Below, piece by piece: positions 13,867-62,907 of a stretch of DNA of 64,000 nucleotides. The stretch is from a virus. How positions within the stretch are numbered: position 1 is the first letter of the stretch; each line of letters starts with the position of its first letter. Under the pieces are notes generated by a model. It was given only the letters and a program-made list of their open reading frames with translations. It searched no databases and had not been told where the DNA came from. Made by a program: the position numbers and the translations under genes. The DNA lies in the IMG/VR virus record IMGVR_UViG_3300045988_173726, positions 160,001-224,000 of that record. One strand, given 5' to 3'.

Positions 13867-13883
13867 TTAAGAGGAGAGAAGCT

Positions 13884-15128
13884 ATGGCAAATTATAATAT
13901 GATAACTGTGAAGTTAAGACAGTTTAGGGAGATGGTGCGTAAACAGCTTGAGGCGAAGTTGTATACGCCTATACTTGCACTCGGAAAGCCGGGAGTAGGT
14001 AAGACGGAAACGCTGTCAGCGCTTGCAAAGGAGCTTGGAATCGGGTATTGCGAGTTCCGAGTAGCGAGTATGACACTGGTGGATGTGCTGGGTATTCCGC
14101 ATGAGATTGAGCAGGAGAAGGGCGGGATGGTAACGCTGTGGTCGCCAAACGGCTTATTGCCGAATGAGGAGAGAGACGGAGAGGTAGGTATACTGGCGCT
14201 AGACGAGATAACAGCGGCGAAGCCAGAGATGAGAACTACGCTCTTACAGTTGCTTGACTCTAGGCGACAGGTCGCGTCCTACAAGTTTCCAGAGCATTGG
14301 GTTTGCATTGCTATCGGTAACGATGACGAGTCGGGCGCGGATTATCAAGGTATCGAGTCCCCGTTTATCGGACGATGCGGCTTAAAGATGCTTCTTGACC
14401 CAGACTTTGATGACTGGAAGCCTTGGGCGTTACAGCACGATATAAACACGACCATTCTTGCGTTTATCGAGAGTGATAAGAGTAAGTTAAACACCTTTGA
14501 CCCGAGTGCGGATGTCGAGGTTTATGCGTCACAGCGAGATTGGGCTAACTTTAGCAAGTTTCTAAATCACTTAGAGTCTTGTAACGGTGGCGCACCGCTT
14601 GACGAAATGACGGTATCGCTGTTTGCGAAGGCTTCTGTGGGAGAGAAAGTTGGACCAGAATTCGCAATGTATTATAGATATAATACGCAGATAGTATCTG
14701 CGGAGGCTCTGTTAAACGGAACGGCAGAGGTAAACTTTGCAGGGCTGGATAACGCAAAGTTTTATCTATTACAGAAGCATGTCAATCAGATTATCATAGA
14801 CGACTTAAAGGGAACTTACGATGCAAACCTTTCTTACAGGTTTGACGAGAAGATAAAGATTAGTGACGATGTTAAGCGTCATCTAACGAATCTGATTAAG
14901 TTTATCGTTGAGTTACCTTCTTCCGAGTGGCGAGCAGTTACGATAACAGACTTAACACATACTGTTTCTGCGTCTATCGGAATATTCTACGATGTAGATA
15001 CTAACCAGACAGGTGTGTTTAATGACAGGACATTGAGGGATAAGTTTAAGAAGGCGTTTGACGATATTGCGCTCTATATGAGTCAGCAAGAGGACGCGCT
15101 TACGCTTGCAAAGAGCCAGAAGAAGTGA
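13884..15128 (+). CDS. MoxR-class AAA+ ATPase
   Basis: Walker A LGKPGVGKTE and Walker B GILALDEIT. Sits immediately downstream of the VWA protein, the usual MoxR-VWA pairing. Confidence 0.7.
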   Translation: MANYNMITVKLRQFREMVRKQLEAKLYTPILALGKPGVGKTETLSALAKELGIGYCEFRVASMTLVDVLGIPHEIEQEKGGMVTLWSPNGLLPNEERDGEVGILALDEITAAKPEMRTTLLQLLDSRRQVASYKFPEHWVCIAIGNDDESGADYQGIESPFIGRCGLKMLLDPDFDDWKPWALQHDINTTILAFIESDKSKLNTFDPSADVEVYASQRDWANFSKFLNHLESCNGGAPLDEMTVSLFAKASVGEKVGPEFAMYYRYNTQIVSAEALLNGTAEVNFAGLDNAKFYLLQKHVNQIIIDDLKGTYDANLSYRFDEKIKISDDVKRHLTNLIKFIVELPSSEWRAVTITDLTHTVSASIGIFYDVDTNQTGVFNDRTLRDKFKKAFDDIALYMSQQEDALTLAKSQKK

Positions 15129-18406: not shown

Positions 18407-20122
18407 ATGGTTGTTCTTTGTCGTATCGGAGCTAGTAGTCTAAATGTAGTGCTTAATGATGGGGAGATAGAGTTTATTCCCGAAGAGGAGTTAGGCGAGT
18501 CGGTAGCTAACGCGGGTTTGCCTACTGCCGAGGGGGATAAGAGAGTTGTATTTGAGGTAGACGGTAAGTTTTATATTGTAGCAGTAAGGGGTTTTGAGGC
18601 TCGTGTGTACCTGTCTGACGCTCGGTATATTAACAACTCTCGGGTAAAGGAAGTATATGTTTATGATGGAGCTAATTTTAACCGAACAGAGCGCGAGGAA
18701 GTAGAGTCTCCGTTTCGATATAAGTTTAAGCCGCTTGAGATTAAGACAAGCGACTATAGAGACGGGGAAATCGTTTATAAGGTCGGGGTATACAAGATAG
18801 CGGTCGAGAGTGAAGAGGTTAAGGAGACAGGTAGTAAAGTAAGCCTGTTTGATGACGAAACGGAAGATAGAAGCGAAGCGATAGTAGATATTCCGAGAAA
18901 GTATAGCGAGTATAAGAGCGACTGCAAGCTGTGTCACGGGACAGGGAAGGCAATAAACAAGTTAGGATATGTAGTAGAGTGTAGCTGTGGTAGAGCGCTC
19001 TTTGAGGAGCGGGAGCGACTTAGGGAGCTTGCGGAGAGGAAGCCCGTATTCAGCGTTCCGAAGTCGGTAAGTGAGATAGCGGTGTTAAAGGGTCTTGTGC
19101 CGAGCGAGCATGAGAACATTGTGTACGATTCGGAGTATGTTTATCGCCGTATCACTGGGTCTATCGGAGGGGATAGAGTAGTAGGGTTTGAAAACTACGA
19201 TAAAGCGGTGTGTTCGATAATCAATGCTTGCAGGACAGGGACAAAGGTGCGGCACAGTTACTTACTGGCGGCAGACACGGGGTTTGGGAAAAAGAGTTTC
19301 GTGTATACTTGCCTAAAGTATCTTTTGGGTAGGGATGTGAGAGTTCCTAAGTATCTGTCGCTGTCAGAGATAGGCTTTCTTTCAGAGAAGCGAGTGAAGC
19401 AAGCAAAGGCGTTAAATGTGCCGACCTACTATTTTCGGTATAACGAGAGTGACAAGTTTAGGTTTATCTGGGCAGAGGTCAGTAAGAAAGCGGAGAGGCG
19501 GCTTTTAGAGATATTAGCGGAGCGTTCTGCTGGGGTCGGAATCAGTTTATCGGAGAAGGAGTTCAGTGACTTAAAGCACGAGGTCGATTATGCGGTGCTG
19601 GAAGAGGTGACAGGGTTATATAATGAGGCGATAAAGGGGTATGACAGGAACGACACCGAGGGGATAGCGGCGAAGGTAAACGAGGTATTAGCGAAGCAGT
19701 TAGATACTTACGAGGACATCTTGAATGCGCCGATATTGTTTACATATTTTGCAGAGTATACGAACATTCAGTACGAGGTAGAGGTCTTGCATACGCTATT
19801 AACGGTCAGAGGAAACAAGTGTTTGCCGACTATCGTGCTAATGGAGGACAGTGTGCGAAAGTTCGGCAATATAGTCGGCTACAGTAACGGAGCAGAGGGA
19901 GACATAGAGGTAGATGCGATTAGAGCCTTGTCAGACCACTGGGGAAGTATGCTAAGTGAGAACAGCACTTTCTTTATGGAGAACTTGAATGCGAAGAAGG
20001 TAGCGGAAGATATGGCTGGAGAATCGAATTATAAGCGGATGATATATGTAAACTGCTACAAGACTAGGGATTACTTAAAGGCGCTAGTCGGAAGTCGAAA
20101 GAAGCGAGGTGGAAAGGCGTGA
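18407..20122 (+). CDS. zinc-knuckle plus P-loop NTPase-like protein
   Basis: Zinc knuckle CKLCHGTGKAINKLGYVVECSCG and P-loop-like LAADTGFGKKSF. Start set at ATG 18407 (SD GGAGGT 7 nt upstream). TTG 18365 and ATG 18392 are alternatives. Confidence 0.5.
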   Translation: MVVLCRIGASSLNVVLNDGEIEFIPEEELGESVANAGLPTAEGDKRVVFEVDGKFYIVAVRGFEARVYLSDARYINNSRVKEVYVYDGANFNRTEREEVESPFRYKFKPLEIKTSDYRDGEIVYKVGVYKIAVESEEVKETGSKVSLFDDETEDRSEAIVDIPRKYSEYKSDCKLCHGTGKAINKLGYVVECSCGRALFEERERLRELAERKPVFSVPKSVSEIAVLKGLVPSEHENIVYDSEYVYRRITGSIGGDRVVGFENYDKAVCSIINACRTGTKVRHSYLLAADTGFGKKSFVYTCLKYLLGRDVRVPKYLSLSEIGFLSEKRVKQAKALNVPTYYFRYNESDKFRFIWAEVSKKAERRLLEILAERSAGVGISLSEKEFSDLKHEVDYAVLEEVTGLYNEAIKGYDRNDTEGIAAKVNEVLAKQLDTYEDILNAPILFTYFAEYTNIQYEVEVLHTLLTVRGNKCLPTIVLMEDSVRKFGNIVGYSNGAEGDIEVDAIRALSDHWGSMLSENSTFFMENLNAKKVAEDMAGESNYKRMIYVNCYKTRDYLKALVGSRKKRGGKA

Positions 20123-20540
20123 AGCGGCTATGGTAATTTATCAGTAGCATAGCGGTAGAGAGCAATTAACACAAGTACACGCCTAAAAACAAAGGTCATA
20201 ATAGTCAGCTAGACCTACAAAGAAATTTGTCGTACACAAGGGCTTTTATAAACTGTAATTAAATAAAATTTTCAAGCCTAGTCGTATCCGAGGCAGGATT
20301 CAATTTTATAAACTTCTCAAAGCAAGCGAAATACCGATACTGAATTTCGGGGTGAACCCGTAGGTAAAATCGACATACCAGACACCGAATTTTAGCCTCT
20401 TAAAAAGAGGGGGTTTCGGAGAAGGTCTTTTCGGGGGCGGGGCGTTTAAGGGCGGCGAGCGGATAGCACGAGTTGCCCATTACACTAGTACACGCTAGGC
20501 AGTCGGTTTGGGAAATTTAGGAGAGAGGAGAGGGAGGAAA

Positions 20541-22130
20541 GTGGCAATTAGTAATCCAAGTTTGAAAGCGTTACTGCAACAGCTCTGGAAAACGCCGTCC
20601 GAGCGTTTAGGGCTACTGCGTCAGACAGAGCCGTATAAGATTTGCTATATCGGTTCAGACTGTAGCAGTGCGAGAGAGTATAACGATGTTTTAGCGACTT
20701 TTAAGGAGAAGGCAGGAGAGGATAGCCGTCATACGCTGTTGTTTGATAACGAGATTCCGTTTAATGTGGATTTAGACTTTATCGGGACGGTAAAGCAGGG
20801 TTTGGCTACGGTAGATTTAACTGCAATTAAGGACAGCGATGTGGTAATGTTTGCGGATGCGAGCTATAATCACAGGTTTGTCCAGAAGTTGCAGGGGGTA
20901 GTCAATAAGATTCTGTCGAACGAGACATTTCCGAACGAGTCTGTCAAAGCAAACTTCATAACGAGGCTTCTCTTAGAGGTTTATACGCTTGTCGTGCCGC
21001 TTGAGAGAGTAGACGAGTATAGCACGCCGAATAAGTGTATCTATTACGGAAGTATAGAGAGGTATGCGGTATATTTCCTAATGCTACTGGCGGGTATGGG
21101 GTTTGACATCGTGTATATCAACCCGTTTGAGAAGCCAGATTGCTTAGATTTGCTGGGTGCAGAGCTCTCGGTAAGGAATACGCGGTATCAGATAGGTTCG
21201 CTTTCCGATAGGGCTTCAAAGGGACAGGCGATTCATCAGATAGACTCCGTGACGCTCGGATTTAGGCAGGAAGTAGAGAAAACAGTCTTTACGGATTCGG
21301 GTTTATTTAGACAGTGGCAGTTTAAGCATGGCGGGACGACAGAGAGTATGTTTCTGAACGCTACGGTCGAGGATTTAGAGAATAACTGGGACGCAGAGGC
21401 TAGAGTTCGGCAGGGTTTTGGGGTAGTCGGGAAGAAAGTAAAGATACCTACACTTTTCTACGAGGTAGACGGAGTTCACAGCGATGATAACGACTACTGC
21501 GCATTTGTCGGGAAGTTTGTCGGCGGGAAAGACACGCTTTTAATTTATGGTAAGCCCGAGGAGCTTCTGGATATAACGATTTCAGAGGATGATGTTCTAA
21601 AGATTTCGTTTTGCCAGAAGGGAGACGGAAGTTTTGACAGAGATATGCTAAAGGCGTTGCCGTTTTATCGGTATGCGCCGTATAACGATGACACAGAGGA
21701 CTTTATCTTAGACAAGATAAACGAGACGCTTTCAGATAGCACTCTGTTTTCGCGTCCCATTGTAGATAAGCGGGATAAAGTCGAGTTTGTTGCGATGTGC
21801 TTGCAGTTAAACAAGAAGTTAATGTATATGATAGACACATTTGACTTTCCTTTTGGGATTCCGAAGGTAGTTGCGTTTCTTGATAACGAGAGTTCGCTTA
21901 GTCAGCAGACTCCGTATATCTTAGGTTTTTTGCACAAGATAGGCTTTGACATACTTGTGTTAGCCCCTGCGGGGCTTTCAAATCTTTCGACATATGTGGA
22001 TAGGGGGCGATATAACTGTGTGAGATTAGCGGAGATGAAGTATGATGTGACCTTTGATAAGGTTTCCAGTCCAGAGGGCAGGAAGAAGTCGGCAAAGAAA
22101 GGTGTGCTTGCAAGTTTATTTAGTATTTAA
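20541..22130 (+). CDS. YceG-like Ter-operon protein (assigned by size and synteny only)
   Basis: About 529 aa from GTG 20541 (SD GGGAGG). Sits directly upstream of TelA and three TerD genes, as the roughly 537 aa YceG does in the Bacillus subtilis yceCDEFGH operon. I recognised no sequence motif. Confidence 0.4.
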   Translation: MAISNPSLKALLQQLWKTPSERLGLLRQTEPYKICYIGSDCSSAREYNDVLATFKEKAGEDSRHTLLFDNEIPFNVDLDFIGTVKQGLATVDLTAIKDSDVVMFADASYNHRFVQKLQGVVNKILSNETFPNESVKANFITRLLLEVYTLVVPLERVDEYSTPNKCIYYGSIERYAVYFLMLLAGMGFDIVYINPFEKPDCLDLLGAELSVRNTRYQIGSLSDRASKGQAIHQIDSVTLGFRQEVEKTVFTDSGLFRQWQFKHGGTTESMFLNATVEDLENNWDAEARVRQGFGVVGKKVKIPTLFYEVDGVHSDDNDYCAFVGKFVGGKDTLLIYGKPEELLDITISEDDVLKISFCQKGDGSFDRDMLKALPFYRYAPYNDDTEDFILDKINETLSDSTLFSRPIVDKRDKVEFVAMCLQLNKKLMYMIDTFDFPFGIPKVVAFLDNESSLSQQTPYILGFLHKIGFDILVLAPAGLSNLSTYVDRGRYNCVRLAEMKYDVTFDKVSSPEGRKKSAKKGVLASLFSI

Positions 22131-22150
22131 CGCGAGAGAAGGAGAAGAGT

Positions 22151-23311
22151 ATGCAGTATAACGAGTTAGTTCCCGTAGAGCTTACGAAGCAGGAAGTTGC
22201 AGAGAGCAAGGAGATGTTGGATGCTCCCGAGGCGTATAAGGAGAAGTTAAAGGCTCTGCCCGAGGTGCAGAACTTAACGAATGAGATTAAGATTGATTTT
22301 AACAATGCGAACGGCACAGGAATGTCGATTCTCCAGTTCGGAAAGAAGCCCGCAGAGGAAATCGAGAAGATGTCTAACGAGATTCTTAACTATGTGAAGG
22401 TACCGACCGACACAGAGGCGGCTGAAATGATGAAGCAGCTTGCAAGGGTTATGAATCGGTTTGACATTAAGGAAATCGAGAAGATTAACGATATTCCTAA
22501 GAAAGAGAGCTTCTTTGACAAGATTCGGAAGCGCATGATGGAGAATCTTGATGCAGTAATCCAGAAGTATGACAATATGGGGAAAGAGGTAGACCGTATC
22601 GGTCAGTTGCTTCGAGGCTTTGAACAGCAGACGATTGATAGTAATGTGACGCTCACGAAGATGTGGAAAGCGAATCAGAACTATTTTTGCGAGCTTGAGA
22701 AGTATGTAGTAGCTTGCGACTTGGCAGTAGACGAGCTTACGCTTTATCGTTCTCGGGTGGAGGCAGATAACGAAACGCTGTCTCCCGATATGAAGAGTAT
22801 CCGTTTAGGTCAAATTGACATGGCTGTAAACGAGATTAAGAAGCGCCAGTACGACTTATTGCAAGCGGAGATGGTGGCAAGAATGACCGTGCCGATGCTC
22901 CAGAATATGCAAGTTACGAACATGAATCTGGTGCGAGAGATTAACGCGGCGTTTGTAGTGGGTCTGCCGATTTTCAAGCAGAATTTGGCGCAGGCTATTT
23001 TGCTTAAGAGACAGGCGATTGTAGCGAACTCGGTCGGGCAGTTTAGGGAAGCGCTTAACACACAGCTTGAGCAGAACGCGAATTACAGCGCAAAGACTGG
23101 AGCAGAGGTAGCAATGCGTTCTATGGACGGATTGTTTGACATGGATACGCTTAGACGGGTTTATCAGACGGTCAAAGAGGGAACTGCGAATGTGCAGAGA
23201 GCGATGGAGACGCAGATGTTGTCGAATGCGGAGAATGCAAAAGAGATTGAGCGCATGAAGCTTGAGACGAGGCAGGGTTCGTTGTCTGTGACAAAGCAAT
23301 ATGGCAAGTAA
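22151..23311 (+). CDS. telA: TelA/KlaA-family toxic anion resistance protein
   Basis: 386 aa, all-helical. The architecture resembles TelA/YceH, and it sits next to the TerD genes. Confidence 0.7.
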   Translation: MQYNELVPVELTKQEVAESKEMLDAPEAYKEKLKALPEVQNLTNEIKIDFNNANGTGMSILQFGKKPAEEIEKMSNEILNYVKVPTDTEAAEMMKQLARVMNRFDIKEIEKINDIPKKESFFDKIRKRMMENLDAVIQKYDNMGKEVDRIGQLLRGFEQQTIDSNVTLTKMWKANQNYFCELEKYVVACDLAVDELTLYRSRVEADNETLSPDMKSIRLGQIDMAVNEIKKRQYDLLQAEMVARMTVPMLQNMQVTNMNLVREINAAFVVGLPIFKQNLAQAILLKRQAIVANSVGQFREALNTQLEQNANYSAKTGAEVAMRSMDGLFDMDTLRRVYQTVKEGTANVQRAMETQMLSNAENAKEIERMKLETRQGSLSVTKQYGK

Positions 23312-23396
23312 AGCAGTAACGGAGAATACCTGTTATAAATCTTATGTACACACAGAGTATGGCTAATAAATTTATTTAAGGAGGAGTAGGGCTGTT

Positions 23397-24104
23397 ATGT
23401 TAGATTTCACGCAATATGACAAGAAGTCGCTTTCAAAGGTCGGAAATGTAGACTCAAGTTCGGTTCTGGTGCTTGAGAAGGATAGCATCTTGCGTCTTGA
23501 AAAGGACGCGCCGAGCTTACGGCACTGCACGGTTGGTTTAAGCTGGGATGCGGCGCAGGATGGCGCGGCTTCGGTAGATTTGGATTTGTCGGCGCTTTAT
23601 ATCGTCCCGAACGAGCGAATCACGAAGGCGAATGTGAACGAGCGTTTCTGTTATTACGGCAATCCGAATAACAGTGGTGACGGGAACTCGGTAAAAGGCA
23701 TTCTGCCGACAAAGTGCTATATGATACCTGGAACTTGGTCGGCGGGAGATGACAGATTTGGTAAGATTTCGGTCGGTAAGAACGATAACGAGGAAGTATA
23801 CACAAATCTTGACGAAGTTCCTGCAAATGTAGCGGGAATCTTGTATGTCGTAAGCGTCTTTAATCAGTACGAGGATAATCGTCCGAAGCAGACTTTCGGA
23901 GCGGCTAGAAACGCATATGTGCGTTTAATCGACCGCGACACGAACAAAGAGATTGCGAGATACAGTTTAACGGGTGATTACTCGACAGATACGGTGGTTG
24001 AGTTCTGCACGCTTGAGCGAGATGGTAACGGCTGGGTGTTCCATGCGCTTGGAAACGGTTCTATGGGTACGCTTATTGACATTGTGACAAAGTACGGAGC
24101 ATAA
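23397..24104 (+). CDS. terD: TerD-family stress protein
   Basis: TerD hallmarks GLSWDA, DLDLSA and NAYVRLIDRDTNKEIARYSL, plus the ending GWVFHALG. Confidence 0.85.
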   Translation: MLDFTQYDKKSLSKVGNVDSSSVLVLEKDSILRLEKDAPSLRHCTVGLSWDAAQDGAASVDLDLSALYIVPNERITKANVNERFCYYGNPNNSGDGNSVKGILPTKCYMIPGTWSAGDDRFGKISVGKNDNEEVYTNLDEVPANVAGILYVVSVFNQYEDNRPKQTFGAARNAYVRLIDRDTNKEIARYSLTGDYSTDTVVEFCTLERDGNGWVFHALGNGSMGTLIDIVTKYGA

Positions 24105-24119
24105 GGGAGGATACGAGAT

Positions 24120-24824
24120 ATGTCGATTTTTGGTAAACTTTTCGGTAACGGGGAAGAGGAAGAGAAGAAGAGCGAGACGGCTCGTTCTGCGGGCTTTAGT
24201 GAAGCGGCAAGGGACAAGATTAAGGGCGTAGCGAAGCGAGAGGTTTTATTAAACCTTGAGAAGCCGTCTGTGATTAGCCTAGAGAAAGGTGACATTTTGA
24301 ATCTTTCAAAGGCGAATGTGCCGCTTAGTAAGATTCACGCGGCGGCAGGCTGGGATGCGGCAAAAGCGGGTCATATTGACTTAGACCTCTGCGCACACTT
24401 GTTTGCGGGTGATAAGCTTGTCGATACGGTTTATTTTGGGAATAAGCACAGTAAGCGGGACGGTATCTGGCTCGACCACGATAATCTGACGGGTGATGGA
24501 GACGGCGATGACGAGAACATCTATGTAAATCTTCACGGGCTTAGGGATGACGTGGATAGAATTTACTTGTCCGTTGTATCGTTTACGCATAACACATTTA
24601 ACGATGTGAAAAACGCATATGTTCGCTTGATTGACGAGAGCGGAAGAGAAAGAGAGCTTGCACGCTATGATATTTCAGCGGACGGAGGTAAGAATGACTC
24701 CGTGACAGCGGGTGCGTTTATCCGAGAGGGTAACGAGTGGAAGTTCCTTGCGATTGGGGAGTATAGCTATAACAACCAGAAGATTCGGGTTCTCGGAGAT
24801 AAGTTAGCCGAGGCGCTTAAGTAA
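24120..24824 (+). CDS. terD: TerD-family stress protein
   Basis: Hallmarks AAGWDA, DLDLCA, GDGDGDDE and NAYVRLIDESGRELARYDI, plus EWKFLAIG. Confidence 0.85.
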   Translation: MSIFGKLFGNGEEEEKKSETARSAGFSEAARDKIKGVAKREVLLNLEKPSVISLEKGDILNLSKANVPLSKIHAAAGWDAAKAGHIDLDLCAHLFAGDKLVDTVYFGNKHSKRDGIWLDHDNLTGDGDGDDENIYVNLHGLRDDVDRIYLSVVSFTHNTFNDVKNAYVRLIDESGRERELARYDISADGGKNDSVTAGAFIREGNEWKFLAIGEYSYNNQKIRVLGDKLAEALK

Positions 24825-24839
24825 AGGAGGGCATGAGAG

Positions 24840-25475
24840 ATGGCTATTGATTTTTCGATTTTGGATAAGAACGCACCGAAGCCGAGTGAGGTAACGGGAA
24901 ACGGTGGTAGTTCACCGATTAGCCTTGAGAAGAACAGCATTATCGACTTGAGCAAGGCGGCACCGAGCCTTAAGCGTGTAAAGTTTACAGGCGGTTGGGA
25001 TATTGCGAAGCAGGCAGGCGAGCAGTTTGACCTTGATATTTCTGTCTTCTGTGTAGACTATAAGGGTAAGGTCGGAGACTTAAGAACCGAGGCGGTCTGG
25101 TATTTGAATCTCGATAAGCGCGGAATCGTTCACAGCGCAGATAACAGAACAGGCGAGGGTGAGGGCGATGACGAGTATGTGAGCATCAACTTAGACGATG
25201 TGTCTCGTGACTATCAGAGGCTTCTGTTTACTGTTTCGATTTACGAGGCAGAGAAGCTTAAGCAGACTTTCGGTCGGGTGAGCAATGCGTTTACGCGCCT
25301 TGTAGATATGGATACAGGTCGTGAGATTGTTCGTTACAACTTAACGGGTGACTATTCCACCGATACTTTCCTGTTTGTCGGTGAGCTTGTGCGGAACGGT
25401 GACAGCTGGGCATTCCATACGATAGGGCAGGGAAGCAACGATAATCTCTTAACCTTCTGGGAGAGATATAAGTAA
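24840..25475 (+). CDS. terD: TerD-family stress protein
   Basis: Hallmarks GGWDIA, DLDISV, GEGEGDDE and NAFTRLVDMDTGREIVRYNL, plus SWAFHTIG. Confidence 0.85.
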   Translation: MAIDFSILDKNAPKPSEVTGNGGSSPISLEKNSIIDLSKAAPSLKRVKFTGGWDIAKQAGEQFDLDISVFCVDYKGKVGDLRTEAVWYLNLDKRGIVHSADNRTGEGEGDDEYVSINLDDVSRDYQRLLFTVSIYEAEKLKQTFGRVSNAFTRLVDMDTGREIVRYNLTGDYSTDTFLFVGELVRNGDSWAFHTIGQGSNDNLLTFWERYK

Positions 25476-25515
25476 GTAGCGGCGAGGTCGCATTAGGCAG
25501 TCACATGTTTAGGTA

Positions 25516-25547
25516 GCGGGGAGGCAGAAAAGTCTCCCCGCATTTAT
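25516..25547 (+). terminator. possible terminator or attenuator
   Basis: 8 bp stem GCGGGGAG / CTCCCCGC. The trailing T-tract is weak (ATTTAT). Confidence 0.45.
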
Positions 25548-25560
25548 CGGGAGGTAAGAT

Positions 25561-28185
25561 TTGAAGTATACGGGATTAAGTAAAGAAGAGGTGCGTAAGT
25601 CTTACGAGGCGCATGGAAATAATGCGCTTTCGTCTAAAAAGACAGAGACTTTTCTTGAGATTTTAGTCGGGGCGTTTGACGACCCTTGGATTAAGGTGTT
25701 GCTTGCGGGTCTTTTGCTAAAGGTCGCGATTAACGTAGCATGTATGGTAAATCCGTCACTCGGGGAAGCGGACTGGATTGAGGTCGTATCGCTTGTTTTA
25801 GCGATTGGTCTTTCTACGGGAGTTGCGGCATTCTCGGAGTGGAAGAACGGGCAAGAGTTTAATGTCTTGCAGGAGCAAGCGTCAAAGATAGTCACGAAGG
25901 TTTATCGTGACGGCAGTTTGCAGGAAATCAGCATAGATGACATTGTTCTTGGAGATATAGTCCAGCTTCGTGCAGGAGACCAGATTCCTGCGGACGGTAT
26001 TATTCTGTCGGGAAGCCTAAAGGTAAATCAAGCGTCTCTAAACGGAGAGTCAGAGGATGCAAAGAAGCTAGAGCTTGGTGAGAATCCGCGTCCTACTGGG
26101 GATGACACTTTTAATCCGTTTATTTTGCTTCGCGGTTCGTATGTAACGGAGGGCGAAGCAGTGATGGAAGTCACGGCGATAGGTGATAAGACAATGCTTG
26201 GTTCTATCAACGTGGCGATACAGGAAGATGCAAAGGAGTCGCCGTCCAAGGAGAAGCTAACGAAGCTTGCGGGTCAGATAGGTGTTATGGGTTCTGCGGG
26301 CGCGATTGGTTATCTTTTAATCAATGTGGTGCTTGTGTCTGGCTTGGTTCGGACGATTCAGAAGCCCGATAACATCATCTTCTTTGCGATTCAGCTTATC
26401 ATGTACGCTGTGACTATCATTATTATGGCGGTACCAGAGGGTCTGCCGATGATGCTTGCGATGGTTGCCAGTATGAACAGCAGACGGCTTCTTTCCGAGA
26501 ATATTCTGGTAAGGAAGCCAGACAGCATTGAGACAGCGGGCTATATTGATATGCTGTTTTCGGATAAGACGGGTACGATTACAGAGGGTGTATTAAAGGT
26601 AGTAGACGTGCTACTGGGAGACGGCTTTGTTTATACGACAGGAGATACAGTTGGTAAGCAGTTTAAGAGTGCACCGGATAGCCTAAAGGCAGAGTTAAAG
26701 GCGGGCATTGGATTAAATAACGACTCTTCGATTTCAAACGGAGTAGCGATTGACTCAAATACGACAGACAGAGCACTCTTAAACTTTCTGTTTAGCTATG
26801 GACTTGTGCCAGATAGCAAGGAGAGCATTGTTTCTAAAGAGGCATTCACTTCTGCTACGAAGTTTGCTTCGGTTACGCTCGACTCGGGAGAGCTTTATAT
26901 AAAGGGTGCGCCAGAGATTATTCTAAAGGGCGTAACGAAGTATATGACCGAGGACGGAGAGGTAGCCGAGTTTACCAGAGAGGTTGAAGAGGGCTTTACG
27001 AGGGCTTCTGTTGAGCAGGCAAATCGTTCGATGCGGTTGTTGGCTGTTGTGAAAGAGGAGCAGGGCGTAAAGACGCTTATCGGAGCTGTCTGTATTCGAG
27101 ATAATGTCCGTAAGGGCATTAAGCAGACGGTCGAGACGTTAAATGGAGCTGGCGTGTCGGTTGTGATGGTGACAGGCGACAGAAAAGAGACAGCGGTAGC
27201 GATTGCGAAAGAGGCGGGAATTTACGCTTCGGAGTCGGATGTCGTGCTTACGCATGATGAGCTTGTCGGATTAACGGATGACGAGGTAAAGGCGGTACTG
27301 CCGAGGCTAAAGGTTGTTTCTAGGGCTTTGCCGATGGATAAGAAGCGCCTTGTGAATCTGGCGCAGGAGATGGGTGCGGTAACGGGCATGACGGGAGACG
27401 GTGTAAACGATGCGCCGTCCTTAAAGACTTCGGATGTCGGTTTTTCGATGGGAGACGGCACACAGGCGGCGCAGGAGAGTTCAGACATTGTGATTCTGAA
27501 TAACTCGCTGACTTCTATCGAGAAGGCAGTGCTTTACGGCAGAACGATGACGGAGAGCGTGAAGAAGTTTATCGTGTTCCAGCTCACGGTAAATGTAACT
27601 ACGATAGCGATGTCGCTGATTGCGCCGCTGATTGGTTACAAAGAGCCGTTCACGATTATCCAGATTTTGTGGATAAACTTAATCATGGACACGCTTGCGG
27701 CGCTTGCGTTTGGTGAAGAGCCGACCCTTGCACGGTATATGAAGAGACAGCCGATAGGACGGAAGGAGCATATCCTAACGAACTACATGAAGTCGGCTAT
27801 CGGGGTGTCGGGTGCGTTTATTGCTATTGTGTCGGCGGGCATTTTAGCGAACCTTGGAAATGTGCAGGGTGTATTTGATTTAAGCGGAAGCGAAGAGGTG
27901 CTGACTTTCATGTTCACATTCTTTATCTACGCGGTAATCTTTAACTCGCTCAATACTCGGAGTCACGGATTTAATGTGCTTGAGCATATCGGGCAGAATA
28001 AGAAGTTTATCTATGTGATGACTTCGATTGCGGTGGTGCAGTCGCTTATTATTGAGTTTGGCGGGCATGTGTTTAGCACAGTACCGCTTGACTTAAAGCA
28101 CTTTGGAATGGCTTTGTTGCTTGCATTCTTGATTATTCCCGTAGATATGGCGAGAAAGCTTCTTGTCGGTTCATACAAGGAGTAA
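25561..28185 (+). CDS. P2-type (Ca2+-transporting-like) P-type ATPase
   Basis: Motifs DKTGTIT, PEGLP, MVTGDRKETA and TGDGVNDAP, with about 10 hydrophobic helices. TTG start with SD GGGAGG. Confidence 0.85.
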   Translation: MKYTGLSKEEVRKSYEAHGNNALSSKKTETFLEILVGAFDDPWIKVLLAGLLLKVAINVACMVNPSLGEADWIEVVSLVLAIGLSTGVAAFSEWKNGQEFNVLQEQASKIVTKVYRDGSLQEISIDDIVLGDIVQLRAGDQIPADGIILSGSLKVNQASLNGESEDAKKLELGENPRPTGDDTFNPFILLRGSYVTEGEAVMEVTAIGDKTMLGSINVAIQEDAKESPSKEKLTKLAGQIGVMGSAGAIGYLLINVVLVSGLVRTIQKPDNIIFFAIQLIMYAVTIIIMAVPEGLPMMLAMVASMNSRRLLSENILVRKPDSIETAGYIDMLFSDKTGTITEGVLKVVDVLLGDGFVYTTGDTVGKQFKSAPDSLKAELKAGIGLNNDSSISNGVAIDSNTTDRALLNFLFSYGLVPDSKESIVSKEAFTSATKFASVTLDSGELYIKGAPEIILKGVTKYMTEDGEVAEFTREVEEGFTRASVEQANRSMRLLAVVKEEQGVKTLIGAVCIRDNVRKGIKQTVETLNGAGVSVVMVTGDRKETAVAIAKEAGIYASESDVVLTHDELVGLTDDEVKAVLPRLKVVSRALPMDKKRLVNLAQEMGAVTGMTGDGVNDAPSLKTSDVGFSMGDGTQAAQESSDIVILNNSLTSIEKAVLYGRTMTESVKKFIVFQLTVNVTTIAMSLIAPLIGYKEPFTIIQILWINLIMDTLAALAFGEEPTLARYMKRQPIGRKEHILTNYMKSAIGVSGAFIAIVSAGILANLGNVQGVFDLSGSEEVLTFMFTFFIYAVIFNSLNTRSHGFNVLEHIGQNKKFIYVMTSIAVVQSLIIEFGGHVFSTVPLDLKHFGMALLLAFLIIPVDMARKLLVGSYKE

Positions 28186-28194
28186 AATTTTTAC

Positions 28195-28226
28195 GGGGCA
28201 GGGGATTTTTTCTCTGCCCTTTTTGT
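28195..28226 (+). terminator. rho-independent terminator
   Basis: Stem GGGCAG / CTGCCC, then TTTTTGTTTT. Confidence 0.7.
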
Positions 28227-28231
28227 TTTCC

Positions 28232-28260
28232 TTGACAGTGAGAAAGTCTAAGTATATAAT
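28232..28260 (+). promoter_or_regulatory. consensus sigma-A promoter
   Basis: TTGACA (28232-28237), exactly 17 nt, then TATAAT (28255-28260). Confidence 0.8.
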
Positions 28261-28302
28261 AACTAGTGACAGTTAGCGTGTCGGTATGTAAGGAGACAGA
28301 GG

Positions 28303-30429
28303 ATGAGAGAGTTAGTTTTGCTTCGCGGGTTGCCTGCGAGCGGGAAGTCAAGCTTTGTAGAAGAGTACGGCTTGGGGGCATATACCTTAAGCCTTGATGA
28401 CTTTCGGATTAAGGTAAACAGTGTAGAGCTTACAAGGGACGGCGGCTATACGATTTCACAGGTGACGAATACGCTGGTTTATAAGCAGTTTATGTCTGTT
28501 TTAGTGGCTCGTATGGGGTTAGGCGAGTTCACGGTGGTAGACGCTTGTCATGTAAACAGGAAGAGCGCAAAACAGGTACTAGAGTTAGCCGAGAAGTATA
28601 ATTATCGTGTTAGCGTGGTAAACTTAAATGTCTCTGTAGAAGAGAGCAAGAGAAGAAACCGGTTTCGAGAAGAGTATAAGCGTGTTCCCGATGCGGTGAT
28701 TGATAGGATGGCAAGTAGGTGGGAAGATGACTTGCTTTTGCCGGAGATTAAGAAAGAGGATTTTGCTGACTTTCTAAGGCTTAGTGTAGACGAGTTAAAG
28801 GGAAGGTATCGGGGCGTAGTCGTAATCGGAGACATTCATAGCAGTGTGTATCCGCTTAGAAAGGTCATTAAGCAGTTCGATGACAGATTTCTCTATGTGT
28901 TTGTCGGAGACTATTTTGACAGAGGAGACTCGCCCGTAGAGACCTTTAAGCTTGTGGAAGAGCTGTCTACGAAAGAGAATATCGTGATGCTCCTTGGAAA
29001 CCATGAGCATCACATGCGGGATTATCTTTTTGGGGAGTTTGACTCGCTTCCGAGACAGGCAAAAGAGACCTATAGAGCGTTTAAGGAAGCAGGGATTTCG
29101 GAGGTTCGGGTTCGAGAGTTTTACGATAGGCTTCGAGATTATTATGCTTTTAAGGTGTTTGGGAAGAGGTATTTTGTGTGCCATGCGGGAGTCCCGTTTA
29201 TCCCCGAGAGAGCTAAGTTTATCAGTACCAGACAGCTTACAGGTGGTTTAGAGGACGGAGCTGGAGAGATTGATACGATTTACACAGCGAACGCGCTTAA
29301 GCGTGGCTTGGTAACGGATGACGGAGAGTATTTAGGATTTATTCAGATTCACGGTCATTTGAATACGCCGTCAACTATCTTTAGCTATAGCCTTGAGGAT
29401 AGTGTAGAGTTTGGTGGAAACTTAAAGTATGCGGTAATCAATCCGAACAGGGTGACGCCGTCTATTTGCAAGGTAAGTAACAAGTTTGCTGGGGTAGGTG
29501 AGAGGGCTACAGGGATTACGGTAGCAGATGCCCGTGTAAACGCACTTTTGCAGAAGGTAGGAATCAGAGTTAAGGATTTAGGCGACTATTACAGCGTAAA
29601 CTTTTCTCCGACAGTGTTTTATAACAGGTATTGGAACGAGTATACGGTAAAGGCACGGGGCTTGTTTATCGAGAAGGGTACGGGAAAGGTCGTTGCGCGG
29701 AGTTACGACAAGTTTTTTAATGTCGGTGAGCTGGATAGCGAAGAAGGGATTGCGGAGAAGCTTAGATTTCCTGTTACCTTTCGGGAGAAGGCAAATGGAT
29801 TTTTAGGGATTGCCGCTATGTATCGTAAGACAGGGGAAGAGAAGCGTGAGTTAAAGCTGTTTTCTAAGTCTATGGACAAGGGACAGTTCGTTTCGATGCT
29901 TCGCGAGGCGTGGGATAGCTTAAAGCCAGAGACACGGTATGTCCTAAAGAGAATTATGGTAGAGCGGCATGTGTCTGCGATTTTTGAGGTAATCCACCCG
30001 AACGACAGGCATATCGTAGATTATAAGGACGCGACTAAGCTGTATCTCTTAAACTTTGTAGAGAACTCATTAAGCACGAAGGTTTACGCGCCAGAGGAGT
30101 TACTGGGAGAGGACGGTTTGTCGGTAATTTTAAGCGACAGCGGAATAAGTCTGCCGAAAGTGCTTGCCATAGCGCATGGTAGGGACGAGTGGCGTAAAGC
30201 GGTAACGGAGCTTTCGCTTAGAAAAGACATTGAGGGTGCGGTATCGGTAGACAAGCGCGGGTTTATGGTGAAAGTAAAGACGAATTGGTATCGCGACCTT
30301 AAGGCTAGCAGAAAGGCGCTTGAGTACGGCAGAGACATAAACGCTTTCACGCATTACGCGATTAAGCACGGTCTTGAGAAAGAGAGCGTGGTTGTGATTA
30401 AGCGGCAGATGGATAAGGAGGGACGGTAA
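28303..30429 (+). CDS. trifunctional RNA repair enzyme: polynucleotide kinase, metallophosphoesterase and RNA ligase (bacterial Pnkp-type order)
   Basis: P-loop LRGLPASGKSSF. Calcineurin-type motifs VVVIGDIHS, GDYFDRGD and LLGNHEH. Ligase motif I EKANGF, motif IV IEGAVS and motif V MVKVKTNWY. Confidence 0.75.
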   Translation: MRELVLLRGLPASGKSSFVEEYGLGAYTLSLDDFRIKVNSVELTRDGGYTISQVTNTLVYKQFMSVLVARMGLGEFTVVDACHVNRKSAKQVLELAEKYNYRVSVVNLNVSVEESKRRNRFREEYKRVPDAVIDRMASRWEDDLLLPEIKKEDFADFLRLSVDELKGRYRGVVVIGDIHSSVYPLRKVIKQFDDRFLYVFVGDYFDRGDSPVETFKLVEELSTKENIVMLLGNHEHHMRDYLFGEFDSLPRQAKETYRAFKEAGISEVRVREFYDRLRDYYAFKVFGKRYFVCHAGVPFIPERAKFISTRQLTGGLEDGAGEIDTIYTANALKRGLVTDDGEYLGFIQIHGHLNTPSTIFSYSLEDSVEFGGNLKYAVINPNRVTPSICKVSNKFAGVGERATGITVADARVNALLQKVGIRVKDLGDYYSVNFSPTVFYNRYWNEYTVKARGLFIEKGTGKVVARSYDKFFNVGELDSEEGIAEKLRFPVTFREKANGFLGIAAMYRKTGEEKRELKLFSKSMDKGQFVSMLREAWDSLKPETRYVLKRIMVERHVSAIFEVIHPNDRHIVDYKDATKLYLLNFVENSLSTKVYAPEELLGEDGLSVILSDSGISLPKVLAIAHGRDEWRKAVTELSLRKDIEGAVSVDKRGFMVKVKTNWYRDLKASRKALEYGRDINAFTHYAIKHGLEKESVVVIKRQMDKEGR

Positions 30430-30430: not shown

Positions 30431-31270
30431 ATGGTTGTATTCATGTTTGAGCATTCCAGTATGTTTGTCTGGATTTGGATAATGCTCTTGATTGCCTTTG
30501 GAAAGGGCGTGTATCGGTTTGTTAGGGGCAAGGGAGATTTTTCTTCTCGTCTCAAGGCGGTAAAGGAAGAGTATTTTGCAAAGGATTTCGAGGGGCTTTC
30601 GACTTCGGTCATTTTCCTTGGGTTAGCGGTGCTTTTCCTGCTTAGTTATCTTTTGCTTGAGCATGGGGACGTGTCTAAGCGGTATTTGATTCATGTAGCG
30701 GAGAGTGAGGCGATTCAGAGTTCTTCCCTAAGCGTGAAGCCGATTGAGGCAGAGTTTACTGCGCCGCTTGACGCAGTGGTTTATTCAAGAGATGAGCAGA
30801 ACGGCGACAAGGTATCGGAGTTTACGCCGCTTAACGAGAAGAAGTCTATTGCTACGGTTACATTTGGGGACGGCGATGTAGTAAAGGGCAGGGAAACAAG
30901 TTTCATGGTAAATCGTGCGGACAAGTTTAAGGTTCGGACGAATCAGCAGTATAAAATCAATTATTCCGAGGTTTCTAAGGGGAAGTTAAGTATTTATCCA
31001 GACAGTGAGCAGAATCTTAGGAGCGTAAGATACAGAGTTACAGGGTTTAACAAGGGCTACAAGTATTACTTAGACGGAGTGACGCGGATTCCCGATGTAG
31101 AGGTAGAGCGTGGCGATACGATGATTACGTTATTTGCAACCTTTTCGCATAAGGAGAAGGATGATGACGAAGAGGGTAGCCTGCCTCCGTATCGTGTTGT
31201 GAAAGAGCATAGCATTATAGGGTATGACAAGGACTGGAACATTAAGGACTGCTACTTGATTAGGCAGTAA
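30431..31270 (+). CDS. single-pass membrane protein, paralog family A
   Basis: N-terminal TM MFVWIWIMLLIAFG. C-terminal motif VRYRVTGFNKGYKYYLDGVTR. Confidence 0.6.
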   Translation: MVVFMFEHSSMFVWIWIMLLIAFGKGVYRFVRGKGDFSSRLKAVKEEYFAKDFEGLSTSVIFLGLAVLFLLSYLLLEHGDVSKRYLIHVAESEAIQSSSLSVKPIEAEFTAPLDAVVYSRDEQNGDKVSEFTPLNEKKSIATVTFGDGDVVKGRETSFMVNRADKFKVRTNQQYKINYSEVSKGKLSIYPDSEQNLRSVRYRVTGFNKGYKYYLDGVTRIPDVEVERGDTMITLFATFSHKEKDDDEEGSLPPYRVVKEHSIIGYDKDWNIKDCYLIRQ

Positions 31271-31293: not shown

Positions 31294-31941
31294 TTGTTGT
31301 GTGTGTATATTTACTTGTTTTTTGTAGGTTTATGTGTTTTATGGATGTTTGTGATATTCGAGTGCGAATACGGTACGTTTTTCAGTGGTTTATCTTTATT
31401 TGTCGAACAGGTAAAGGTTAATCGTCTGCTGTCTCGTTCCGGCTATAAGTCTTGCCTAGATGTCGGTTCGGTCGCTGGTGTGCTTGAGTTGCCTTGTGGA
31501 GCTAGCCTTTTTGATGTAGACGGTGCAGAGGTAACAACACAGGGTAATCGCTTAGCGTTTGTGGGTAATCGTTTACAGGGAAAGCGATTAATGTTTGATA
31601 ATCGCTTACAGGTTAAAGACGGCATCAGTGTGGTTCACTATAAGGTTGGATTACCAAACGGTGCATCTGTTCGCAGGACGAAGCGGGGCAGTATCTCTCT
31701 TAAGAGGAGCGGCACAGTTTATACGATAAAGCGTAGTGGTTATAAGTGTGCGCGAATGTTTAGTCTTGTTGTTTACTCGCTAGACAGAAGTTTGCGGTGG
31801 TATCTGGACGGTGCAGAGATTGAGTTTCCGAAAGATGGGAATGTTTCGCTAGTCACTGCACCGGTCGGGCACATGGTTAGGTTGTTTGGTTATGACAGTG
31901 AGAATAGGCTCTGTGACGGGGTTATCATAAGGGTTGTATAA
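31294..31941 (+). CDS. single-pass membrane protein, paralog family A
   Basis: TTG start after SD GAGGGGGTGG. N-terminal TM. C-terminal LRWYLDGAEI ... DGVIIRVV. Confidence 0.55.
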   Translation: MLCVYIYLFFVGLCVLWMFVIFECEYGTFFSGLSLFVEQVKVNRLLSRSGYKSCLDVGSVAGVLELPCGASLFDVDGAEVTTQGNRLAFVGNRLQGKRLMFDNRLQVKDGISVVHYKVGLPNGASVRRTKRGSISLKRSGTVYTIKRSGYKCARMFSLVVYSLDRSLRWYLDGAEIEFPKDGNVSLVTAPVGHMVRLFGYDSENRLCDGVIIRVV

Positions 31942-31952: not shown

Positions 31953-32555
31953 ATGAAGTATGTTGAGGTTAAGATACCTGCATTTTTATTCTATTTGTTG
32001 TTCACTGCAATTTCATTTGTGGCAGTAATTGCTTGCATAGTTGTAACGTTGGACTGGTATCAGAGTTTTAGCCTATTAAGCAGTGCCGAGAAGTCACTGT
32101 CATCCGTAGCATCCAATATTACAGTACAGCCAGCACAGGTTTCATTGAGTTTAGCGACAGATTCTTTCGTTTATGATGAGCAGGGAGGCTCGGTAGTCGG
32201 GGATTCTTTGATGTCGTTTAATGCAGGGAGTAATGAATTAAATTTTGGTGTGAGTTATCCTATTAATTCGGGGAAGCAGAAGTCTGTCAAGGTTAGTTTA
32301 TCTGGTAAGCGGGATGGTGCTAAGTATCTGTTTACTGTTAAGAAAGCACGCATGATTAAGTCGGTTGAGTTTCAAGTGTCTGGATTAGATAATTCGCTTA
32401 ACTGGTATTTGGACGGCAAGCGTGTAATTCCTTCCGATGACGGAATACTTTCGACATCCTATGAGTTTCGGCAGGGGAAATGGTATATCATTTTGATGGG
32501 ATACAATAGTGTAGATGGCTCGGTGAGTGACGGAGTTATCATAAAGATTGTGTAG
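31953..32555 (+). CDS. single-pass membrane protein, paralog family A
   Basis: N-terminal TM. Motif VEFQVSGLDNSLNWYLDGKRV ... DGVIIKIV. Closely related to the 35808 gene. Confidence 0.65.
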   Translation: MKYVEVKIPAFLFYLLFTAISFVAVIACIVVTLDWYQSFSLLSSAEKSLSSVASNITVQPAQVSLSLATDSFVYDEQGGSVVGDSLMSFNAGSNELNFGVSYPINSGKQKSVKVSLSGKRDGAKYLFTVKKARMIKSVEFQVSGLDNSLNWYLDGKRVIPSDDGILSTSYEFRQGKWYIILMGYNSVDGSVSDGVIIKIV

Positions 32556-32589
32556 GGTGTCAACCAAAAACACACAGAAAGGTCTACAA

Positions 32590-54137: not shown

Positions 54138-54176
54138 AGGCTTAAATAGTATAACTAGTTGGAAACGGAGGGCAAA

Positions 54177-60738: not shown

Positions 60739-60811
60739 CGGGATGTGGCTCAAGTGGTAGAGCGCTTGCTTTGGGAGCAAGACGTTGCAGGTTCAAGTCC
60801 TGTCATTCCGA
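60739..60811 (+). tRNA. tRNA-Pro (anticodon TGG)
   Basis: Hand-folded 73 nt cloverleaf. Acceptor CGGGATG/CATTCCG, D GCTC/GAGC, anticodon arm CTTGC-TTTGGGA-GCAAG, T GCAGG-TTCAAGT-CCTGT. Confidence 0.85.
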
Positions 60812-60884
60812 TTTACCGTATGGGGATGTACGGTAAGCCACTTTGCCTCCTTACAATGTGGGATTTTCCAGACGGATAGACGGT

Positions 60885-60950
60885 GTGGCGGTAGTGTAGA
60901 GGGAGCATGACGCTAAGGCGTAGGAGCGGGTTCGAGCCTCGCCCGTCACA
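60885..60950 (+). ncRNA. tRNA-like element lacking a normal anticodon arm (E2)
   Basis: Acceptor GTGGCGG/CCGTCAC. D-like GTGT-AGAGGGA-GCAT. T arm GCGGG-TTCGAGC-CTCGC. The anticodon-arm position holds only ACGC-TAAG-GCGT. 66 nt total. Confidence 0.5.
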
Positions 60951-61190: not shown

Positions 61191-61260
61191 TTCCGTCCCT
61201 CGGAATTTCCCCCGTTGGCTTGAGAAGGCTCACCGACACACAACTCCGAGGAGACGGTTT

Positions 61261-62904: not shown

Positions 62905-62907
62905 TAT

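Follow-up and report, generated by a model that had tools for sequence, protein, structure and literature searches.

Analysis of a 64,000-nt stretch of DNA (positions 160,001 to 224,000 of the IMG/VR virus record IMGVR_UViG_3300045988_173726, hereafter the window) revealed six genes on one strand, between positions 20541 and 28185, that encode a YceG_bac-family protein, a TelA protein, three TerD paralogues and a PMCA-type P-type ATPase. We consider it reasonably probable that this locus is a host-derived, trimmed Ter operon of the Streptococcus/Clostridium type, which serves as an envelope and divalent-cation stress module on a giant plasmid-like element. Because the slot directly after the three TerD genes holds TerC in Bacillus and a DUF475 protein in Lactococcus, the ATPase in this slot is best regarded as a non-orthologous replacement of TerC. 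The Ter system itself, Ca2+ binding by TerD and the occurrence of Ter loci on plasmids and phages are known already. Ter and TelA loci have been tied for decades to tellurite, phage and colicin resistance by a mechanism that was never settled, and TerC has only lately been tied to Mn2+ export and metalation.

Contigs of close relatives from IMG/VR and ENA (115-268 kb, 95-98% identity) have a layout identical to that of the window. The contigs of a second group (29-310 kb, local GC content 35.5%) have the order YceG-TelA-(insert)-TerDx3-ATPase, followed by genes for HAD, C-C_Bond_Lyase, PRTase_2/TRSP and StiP/PELOTA_1 proteins. All Ter genes that had been called from the letters alone (YceG, TelA and three TerD) were matched by hidden Markov models (HMMs) of Pfam. 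The first gene (20541-22130, + strand) encodes a YceG_bac-family protein of 529 amino acids (aa; PF14266, E 7e-47). Its GTG start at 20541 lies behind a strong ribosome-binding site, GGAGAGGGAGG, and is likelier than the TTG at 20508 with which the mechanical open reading frame (ORF) begins, as it matches the 529-aa calls in relatives. The YceG protein is 95-97% identical in the IMG/VR relatives, 53% in the second group and 37-40% in Streptococcus chromosomes, with a ratio of nonsynonymous to synonymous substitution rates (dN/dS) of 0.04-0.08. Its AlphaFold2 model (pLDDT 78, pTM 0.50) had no meaningful fold match in the PDB with Foldseek, which gave only spurious P-loop/UvrD alignments (TM 0.1-0.19), and a functional assignment from structure was abandoned.

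The second gene (22151-23311, + strand) encodes a full-length TelA (toxic anion resistance) protein of 386 aa (PF05816, E 3.5e-56, model positions 9-328 of 332), which is 98-99% identical among the close relatives (dN/dS 0.01-0.03). The three TerD paralogues follow on the same strand and all match PF02342. TerD1 (23397-24104, E 4.7e-36, dN/dS 0.04-0.07) has a derived Ca2+-binding loop, GDDRFGKISVGKNDNEE, that in an alignment with Klebsiella pneumoniae TerD shows a 3-aa insertion and the loss of acidic residues. The motif GDN(R/L)TGxGxGDDE is retained in TerD1 of the S. sanguinis and S. salivarius chromosomes, of C. perfringens and of the second element group, and TerD1 of locus L014 has a variant acidic loop. 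TerD2 (24120-24824, E 7.4e-36) and TerD3 (24840-25475, E 2.8e-52) have canonical loops, DHDNLTGDGDGDDE and ADNRTGEGEGDDE, respectively. Among the close relatives TerD2 is the most divergent of the six proteins (80-84% aa identity, dN/dS 0.10-0.17). TerD3 matches the solved K. pneumoniae TerD (2KXT, E 7.7e-43), a documented Ca2+ binder. The intergenic gaps from YceG through the ATPase are 20, 85, 15, 15 and 85 nt, and purifying selection acts on each of the six genes wherever the copy is intact (dN/dS 0.01-0.17 at dS 0.2-0.9). Among cellular organisms, streptococci have the nearest homologues of the six proteins, which points to a host origin of the module.

The last gene of the unit (25561-28185, + strand) encodes an 874-aa protein with the Pfam domains Cation_ATPase_N, E1-E2_ATPase, Hydrolase (HAD) and Cation_ATPase_C. 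Its TTG start is kept in the relatives at 97% identity as well as in the second group, in which the pump is 80% identical. The motifs quoted in the sequence-only reading were all located, PEGLP at aa 292-296, DKTGTIT at aa 335-341 and TGDGVNDAP at aa 611-619, and its assignment to the Ca2+-type P2 ATPases could be narrowed to the PMCA type (P2B), since the protein scored 543.4 bits on the curated PMCA-type equivalog TIGR01517 of NCBIfam (cut-off 507.05). The PMR1-, SERCA-, Mg- and heavy-metal-type models stayed under their cut-offs, with 366 bits against 798 for the PMR1 type. The closest PDB matches were ACA8 and PMCA1/2, then SPCA1, LMCA1 and SERCA. Examination of the substrate site in transmembrane segments M4 and M6 placed the Glu of PEGLP at aa 293 and aligned the M6 segment WINLIMD residue-for-residue with hPMCA1, with N706 and D710 at positions 891 and 895. 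We take the M4 Glu and the M6 Asn/Asp to be the ligands of Ca2+ site II, and the SERCA site-I acids E771 and E908 to be replaced here by Thr and Val. The ATPase is thus predicted to be a single-site Ca2+ exporter, its ion specificity being part of the prediction. Full P-type architecture is common to the window pump, MgtA/CaxP of S. pneumoniae, LMCA1 of Listeria and the eukaryotic PMCA/ACA pumps, and with the bacterial and eukaryotic P2 Ca2+ pumps it shares the single-site ligands and the lack of the SERCA site-I acids. In contrast to these pumps it is embedded in a Ter operon and has no Mn riboswitch leader, and with 874 aa it is too short to hold the long regulatory tails seen in eukaryotic PMCA. 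Identity of the pump is 61-62% to Streptococcus and 41-42% to Clostridium homologues, and dN/dS is 0.04-0.06.

The earlier reading had raised the question whether the linkage of TerD, TelA and a P-type ATPase recurs in other genomes. A scan with a YceG alignment, using patterns derived from the YceG branch of the window type and one genome per species, gave 47 loci from few independent lineages, of which 40 had enough downstream DNA to be assessed. The 47 loci belong to S. sanguinis, S. cristatus, S. salivarius, many Clostridium sensu stricto including C. perfringens, Sarcina, Paraclostridium, Romboutsia and Peptostreptococcaceae. The ATPase gene was found directly after the last TerD gene and on the same strand in 38 of the 40 loci (gaps 14-224 nt, median 100), and because the collinear order recurs so often it lies far beyond chance. 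The S. sanguinis chromosome has the order PRTase, StiP, YceG, TelA, TerDx3, ATPase, HAD, C-C lyase, and in this species as well as in S. salivarius the ATPase gene has TerDx3 on one side and the HAD/C-C lyase genes on the other. In the Clostridium loci four module genes (those for the C-C lyase, PRTase, StiP and HAD proteins) lie upstream of YceG. Several mobile contexts have the same linkage: a TraG/DnaG-bearing streptococcal element also carries the YceG-TelA-TerDx3-ATPase core, and the TerD-ATPase link is kept in two human-gut contigs with more divergent genes or another order, one of them being ATPase-TerDx3. The coupling of pump and Ter genes is therefore the standard chromosomal architecture in Streptococcus and Clostridium, of which the element holds a trimmed copy. 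That the coupling would be special to a mobile or phage-like element did not hold up, for it is the ordinary chromosomal order in these Firmicutes. The chromosomal operons resemble the window copy in core order, strand, short gaps and six homologous proteins (YceG identity 31-40%). They differ from it in that the window copy is without the four module genes, has a remodelled TerD1 loop, resides on a mobile element of about 260 kb and is followed by a Pnkp-like gene.

Two side observations were made in the clostridial loci. Antisense hydrophobic ORFs in the YceG-TelA gaps of Clostridium matched no Pfam family and were set aside as probable artefacts. In Sarcina ventriculi (L057, 7387-8181) the stretch upstream of YceG that is occupied by the module genes in related Clostridium loci contains, at a distance of 1.8 kb, a gene for a PnuC-type nicotinamide mononucleotide/nucleoside transporter, which fits the idea that this module produces or processes a nucleoside-like compound.

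As had been claimed, the window has a gene content like that of Bacillus yceCDEFGH with no TerC: Pfam scans that covered 45 of the window ORFs of at least 100 aa gave no match to PF03741 or PF04332. The only other polytopic window ORF in a scan for transmembrane segments (48848-49513) was not TerC-like, and tblastn with Bacillus TerC and Lactococcus DUF475 seeds found nothing in the window. A TerC/DUF475 homologue was also not found in loci L001-L065, among which are all ATPase-type loci except the gut contigs L067 and L068. The Bacillus yceCDEFGH or 'cluster 2' loci (B. subtilis, B. anthracis YceGH, B. altitudinis and the B. thuringiensis plasmid pLUSID2) resemble the window in having three TerD, YceG and TelA (YceH), and they too can be plasmid-borne, as in pLUSID2. 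However, TerC (YceF/MeeF) directly follows TerDx3 in Bacillus where the window has the P2B ATPase, the gene order is circularly permuted and YceG identity is 24%. The order is TerDx3-TerC-YceG-TelA in pLUSID2 and 3 terD-terC-[aldolase, PRTase, StiP, HAD]-yceG-yceH in B. altitudinis, and the Bacillus yce set has been linked to envelope, oxidative and tellurite stress (PMC11994780). pLUSID2 also encodes a cation-translocating P-type ATPase convergent to yceG-telA (L070, 11483-14149), which is 28% identical to the window pump.

The mobilisable plasmid pFI430 of Lactococcus cremoris has the order aldolase, PRTase, StiP, a 273-aa protein, YceG, TelA, TerDx3, DUF475. The 273-aa protein is annotated as hypothetical and has weak HAD similarity (29% to S. 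sanguinis HAD), and the DUF475 protein also matches the TerC model (E 7e-15). Like the window, pFI430 thus has YceG, TelA and TerDx3 followed by one membrane protein, but this protein is DUF475 instead of the ATPase, and the biosynthetic module is present. The Bacillus and Lactococcus orders can be derived from the Clostridium/Streptococcus order by circular permutation and exchange of the gene that follows TerDx3. The enterobacterial terZABCDEF loci (IncHI2 plasmids, E. coli O157 islands) and the Ter loci of jumbo phages, which have historic links to phage inhibition and colicin resistance, resemble the window in carrying TerD paralogues on mobile elements. The window differs from them in having no TerB, TerC, TerA/Z/E/F or TerY/vWA, and they in turn do not have YceG and the P-type ATPase.

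TerC proteins MeeF and MeeY act in the metalation of Mn-requiring exported or membrane enzymes (PMC10550928, PMC12096827), and the pneumococcal PII ATPase MgtA/CaxP mediates Ca2+ efflux and protects against Mn2+ (PMC6649816). Together these reports give the exchange of TerC for a pump a functional sense. In the searchable full-text literature on TerD with P-type or Ca2+-ATPases we found no description of such an exchange, and comparative Ter work of 2012 may already have mentioned the association. The repeated swap, in two Firmicute orders and several mobile elements, argues that cation export is the membrane function of the Ter core, and it turns the question of this core into a concrete cation-export hypothesis in tractable species.

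The signals around the unit indicate where it ends. The hairpin that had been noticed between the TerD genes and the ATPase is real. It is a stem-loop on the + strand at 25516-25541, GCGGGGAGGC-N6-GTCTCCCCGC, with a 10-bp stem and no U-run, and the spacer in which it lies (25476-25560, 85 nt; 88 nt as folded) has a folding energy of -33.5 kcal/mol (z = -5.3). The stem-loop is conserved in the relatives at 97% identity and absent in the 80% group. It was not scored as a + strand terminator, and no promoter was called within the spacer; it is possibly an attenuator or an RNA-stability element. The sole strong + strand terminator of the unit lies only after the ATPase, at 28195-28220, starting 10 nt past the stop codon, and consists of an 11-bp stem (6 GC pairs) followed by TTTTTGTTTTC. 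A consensus sigma-70 promoter of the next unit, with a Pnkp-like gene, follows at 28232-28260 (+ strand, TTGACA-17-TATAAT, 12/12) and marks the 3' boundary. Because terminator and next promoter only follow the ATPase, the pump is probably co-transcribed with the TerD genes, perhaps in attenuated form, as far as sequence signals can tell. The earlier claim that the ATPase belongs to the Ter unit was thereby upheld, as the linkage is also conserved across genomes. The two findings that would have spoken against that claim, a first protein without YceG similarity and an ATPase in a separate unit that is not co-conserved, were both looked for and neither was obtained.

Upstream of YceG the non-coding stretch 20123-20540 (385-418 nt) contains a G-rich tract and a short hairpin, AGCCTCTT-AAAA-AGAGGGGG, at 20394-20413; no sigma-70-like promoter and no Rfam family were detected in it. 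Riboswitch control of the pump was considered and rejected, since positions 20000-28400 and the surroundings of the pump gene at six related loci contain neither yybP-ykoY nor another Rfam family.

Several observations weigh against a functional unit of Ter genes and pump. The argument for co-transcription is built from signals, and a very stable hairpin separates TerD3 and the pump; also, no sigma-70-like site of at least 9/12 was found on the + strand upstream of YceG (19900-20540). Two of the 40 loci, in Peptostreptococcaceae and Romboutsia, have YceG-TelA-TerDx3 with neither pump nor TerC nearby, and the survey reached only the YceG branch accessible with its patterns, in few independent lineages. 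In the S. salivarius group the pump gene lies between pabB and dltD, either with a full Ter cluster on both sides, as in KSS6, or alone where all Ter genes are absent, and this orthologous pump is 97% identical at the aa level. Because the pump persists alone there, it has a Ter-independent housekeeping role, and a coupling to the Ter proteins need not be physical. The two arrangements can be compared closely: in S. salivarius KSS6 (L027, 7497-14784 and 17449-19508) a 7.3-kb Ter block precedes the pump and a 2-kb HAD/C-C lyase block follows it, and in L007 (9778-9971, 12636-12989) both blocks are precisely absent, and what remains is the pump gene (92% nt, 97% aa identity) between pabB and dltD. 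A specialisation of the Ter-linked pump as a separate paralogue was considered and dropped, as in the S. salivarius group the pumps that have Ter genes beside them and those that do not are 97% identical.

Taken to their end, the persistence of the lone pump and the hairpin would make the ATPase a mere neighbour, a housekeeping Ca2+ pump beside the Ter genes with no functional coupling. The uneven conservation also fits this idea: between the two element groups the pump is 80% identical as compared to 53% for YceG, 54% for TelA and 38-49% for TerD. However, the collinear linkage extends over two bacterial orders in which pump identity falls to 41-62%, it survives in rearranged form in loci L068 and L059, and in Streptococcus Ter genes stand on both sides of the pump. 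Pump and Ter genes have moved jointly onto at least three mobile contexts, the pump and TerC/DUF475 are mutually exclusive in the slot after TerDx3, and the terminator and next promoter are placed after the pump. We therefore regard a chance neighbourhood as very improbable and retain the interpretation of a coupled stress module.

In such a module the three cytoplasmic TerD proteins, two with the canonical acidic loop and one with a remodelled loop, would bind Ca2+. TelA and YceG would have their site of action at the membrane, comparable to Bacillus YceGH in its response to envelope and oxidative stress, and the P2B pump would export a divalent cation (Ca2+, possibly Mn2+), in the role that TerC-family exporters have in canonical Ter systems. 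The module may thereby limit the damage done by cation influx and envelope injury when the cell meets saliva or plaque rich in Ca2+, peroxide, pore formers or membrane-active agents. The spacer stem-loop may lower the level of the pump relative to TerD in the window lineage.

A variant of this scheme, to which we give a low probability, has Mn2+, or Mn2+ together with Ca2+, as the substrate of the pump and manganese homeostasis or exoenzyme metalation as the purpose of the module, comparable to MeeF and MeeY. The part that TerC proteins play in the metalation of Mn-requiring exoenzymes (PMC10550928, PMC12096827) is in line with this, as are the handling of both Mn2+ and Ca2+ by pneumococcal MgtA, the Mn sensitivity of an S. 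sanguinis mgtA mutant and the score that the window ATPase also obtains on the PMR1-type (Ca2+/Mn2+) model. That score, however, is less than half of the cut-off and only the PMCA-type model was passed. The M6 sequence NLIMD is of the PMCA kind, no yybP-ykoY Mn riboswitch was found before any of the Ter-linked pumps examined, and TerD is a documented Ca2+ binder.

The window copy of the operon is trimmed. The biosynthetic module (C-C lyase PF15617, PRTase_2/TRSP, StiP/PELOTA_1 and HAD) was not found in the 64-kb window by tblastn with the proteins of L008 and L012, nor were the four genes found by tblastn in the flanks of ±10 kb of close relatives, and a scan of IMG/VR with a StiP alignment did not return contigs of the window type. 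We infer that the window copy works without the module signal or relies on a copy in the host. The reverse gene set was seen in L074 and L075 (IMG/VR, 244 kb, local GC content 26.7%), where C-C lyase, PRTase and StiP/PELOTA genes are present and no YceG, TelA, TerD or pump gene was detected within ±10 kb; in size and GC content these two contigs are near the published Inocle-delta.

Two independent in-frame deletion variants of the element were found, in which a YceG remnant is fused either to the C-terminus of the ATPase (three contigs) or to the Pnkp-like gene (four contigs). In the former, TelA, TerDx3 and all of the ATPase except its C-terminal quarter have been lost. In the latter, the junction lies at an 'EKR' microhomology, beyond which the remnant continues into the C-terminal portion of the Pnkp-like gene that encodes the ligase (variant coordinates: L063, 6001-7107; L064, 6001-7551; L065, 2683-4233). 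Because these natural variants lack the Ter-ATPase genes, the module is to be seen, from its sequence record, as functional but accessory and dispensable for the element. The absence of metabolite-synthesis genes and the whole-block deletions help to define a minimal working set. The window group (GC content 46%) and the group with 35.5% GC have only the Ter-ATPase block in common and differ in their flanks, and their pumps are each other's closest relatives, which suggests that the block has moved between, or has been kept by, different giant elements. In a contig of the second group (L008, 18427-19723) the Ter block is followed by genes for a GmrSD_N protein and an IS605 OrfB/TnpB protein, and a RAGATH-18 RNA (74 bits) lies just 3' of the TnpB gene, which fits a TnpB guide RNA.

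The accessory nature of the module is also compatible with a role in conflict, in which the historic phage inhibition, colicin resistance and fertility inhibition by Ter loci would translate into superinfection exclusion of phages or rival plasmids. We hold this to be unlikely, and with it the scheme in which Ca2+ that enters by way of an injection pore would be detected by TerD and the signal then be reset by the pump. Superinfection exclusion has been proposed for Ter loci on phages, and plasmid and jumbo-phage loci have been suggested to act in this way (PMC7824862). The genes for type I restriction-modification (R-M) methylase and specificity subunits, an EcoRI-type methylase, a Pnkp-like RNA repair enzyme and a tRNA array in the window would also suit a conflict setting. 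However, no model of PADLOC-DB v2 matched the six proteins, nor were their four neighbours matched (E <= 1e-3). In chromosomes the operon has ordinary surroundings, with housekeeping genes such as pabB and dltD as neighbours. The window copy is without the biosynthetic module that produces the signal, and no experiment is known to tie the Firmicute YceG/TelA/TerD set to phage resistance. An anti-phage or exclusion role, or a manipulation of host Ca2+ by the module, thus remains speculation.

A further idea, which we put forward with considerable doubt, is that TerD and pump form a bacterial Ca2+-signalling module. A breach of the envelope, by phage injection, pore formers or an incoming conjugation partner, would admit Ca2+, TerD and TelA would respond and the pump would reset the signal, and the stripped-down, metabolite-independent copy of the window would serve to exclude competitors. 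If this were true, TerC would serve in every Ter system to export divalent cations in a manner coupled to TerD. The stress module described above remains the interpretation that we prefer for the locus.

The carrier has a size of about 260 kb, of which the window is about a quarter. All gene-like ORFs of at least 100 aa in the window are on the + strand, and its composition is strongly skewed (G 30.1%, C 16.3%, 46.4% GC; GC skew about 0.30 in every 2-kb window). Co-oriented genes are also seen in pXO16 and in the Inocles, with a skew of only 0.17 in the pXO16 region examined. The description of the carrier as a phage-like element is uncertain. In its favour, the close relatives are filed as viral in IMG/VR. 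On the other hand, a comparison of 20 proteins of the window with PHROGs gave no capsid, portal or tail match, and two weak matches to terminase families corresponded to the P-loop region of FtsK/VirB4-like ATPases. A nucleotide search with window positions 20000-29000 gave no match among GenBank phages, and protein matches were mostly to bacterial contigs filed as phage.

Three + strand genes for a VirB4/HerA-like ATPase (545-2695), an FtsK/SpoIIIE-like ATPase (2866-5139) and an SNF2/DEAD helicase (8949-10592) have homologues (31%, 25% and 31% identity) that are syntenic in the conjugation region of pBTHD789-1, which is pXO16 (NC_018516.1, L066), a 350-kb conjugative B. thuringiensis plasmid with co-oriented coding sequences and a 'phage-like nature' (PMC6199540). 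This suggests that the window element and pXO16 may have a common, poorly known transfer or replication backbone. The two are alike in their size of hundreds of kb, their common gene orientation and the three syntenic homologues, and they differ in GC content (34.5% in the pXO16 region examined, 46% in the window). Among the other window genes are those for gyrase-like subunits, a DnaB-like helicase, an NAD-dependent ligase and methyltransferases, and there is a tRNA array.

The Inocles of oral Streptococcus resemble the window element in size, gyrase genes, tRNAs and streptococcal affinity. Membership among the Inocles is nevertheless doubtful, as the 46.4% GC content of the window lies outside the 24-32% reported for the four published taxa (Kiguchi 2025). 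PF13814, the replication-relaxation domain of the InoC marker of about 454 aa, had no match among the scanned ORFs of the window, which is about a quarter of the element, and the main text of the Inocle paper makes no mention of Ter or Ca pumps. Judged by its window genes, the carrier would be a giant pXO16-like, plasmid-like element; its host is probably streptococcal, and an oral source is presumed from Human Microbiome Project (HMP) samples. The window documents functional accessory cargo on barely characterised elements of about 250-300 kb in human-associated metagenomes.

Directly downstream of the Ter-ATPase unit and behind its own perfect sigma-70 promoter, the Pnkp-like gene (28303-30429) encodes a 708-aa fusion of polynucleotide kinase (AAA_33), calcineurin-like phosphatase and T4 Rnl1-type RNA ligase. 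The domain order is that of Pnkp, but the protein scores 72 bits as compared to 750 on the bacterial Pnkp model, and no Hen1 partner was seen. Its domains suggest a device for RNA repair such as serves to counter anticodon nucleases. It is followed by a run of small N-terminally hydrophobic proteins (30431-31270, 31294-31941 and 31953-32555). The second and third of these are paralogous to each other (31% identity, E 1e-12) and have the C-terminal signature '...WYLDG...DGVII(K/R)(I/V)V' in common. The first has a similar '...YYLDG...' motif by eye only, matches no Pfam or PHROG family and is unusually divergent (71-92%) among otherwise close relatives.

A type I R-M methylase and specificity subunit are encoded at 32548-35785, with no restriction subunit seen nearby, and an EcoRI-family adenine methyltransferase at 54159-55145 (E 2e-121) has no obvious endonuclease. 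The gene at 47063-48823 encodes a ParB_N-HNH fusion protein. The tRNA array (60739-62988, + strand) comprises 9 genes according to ARAGORN and 11 according to Rfam, for Pro, Met, Tyr, Leu (two), Ser (two), Arg and Thr, and two of the Rfam matches are weaker (60885-60950 and 61132-61190). Upstream of the Ter-ATPase unit, positions 11749-15128 encode a DUF2201 metallopeptidase and VWA-like protein of 705 aa, followed by an AAA_5/MoxR-like ATPase of 414 aa, and both match phage-found PHROG families (E 2e-66 and 1e-49, respectively).

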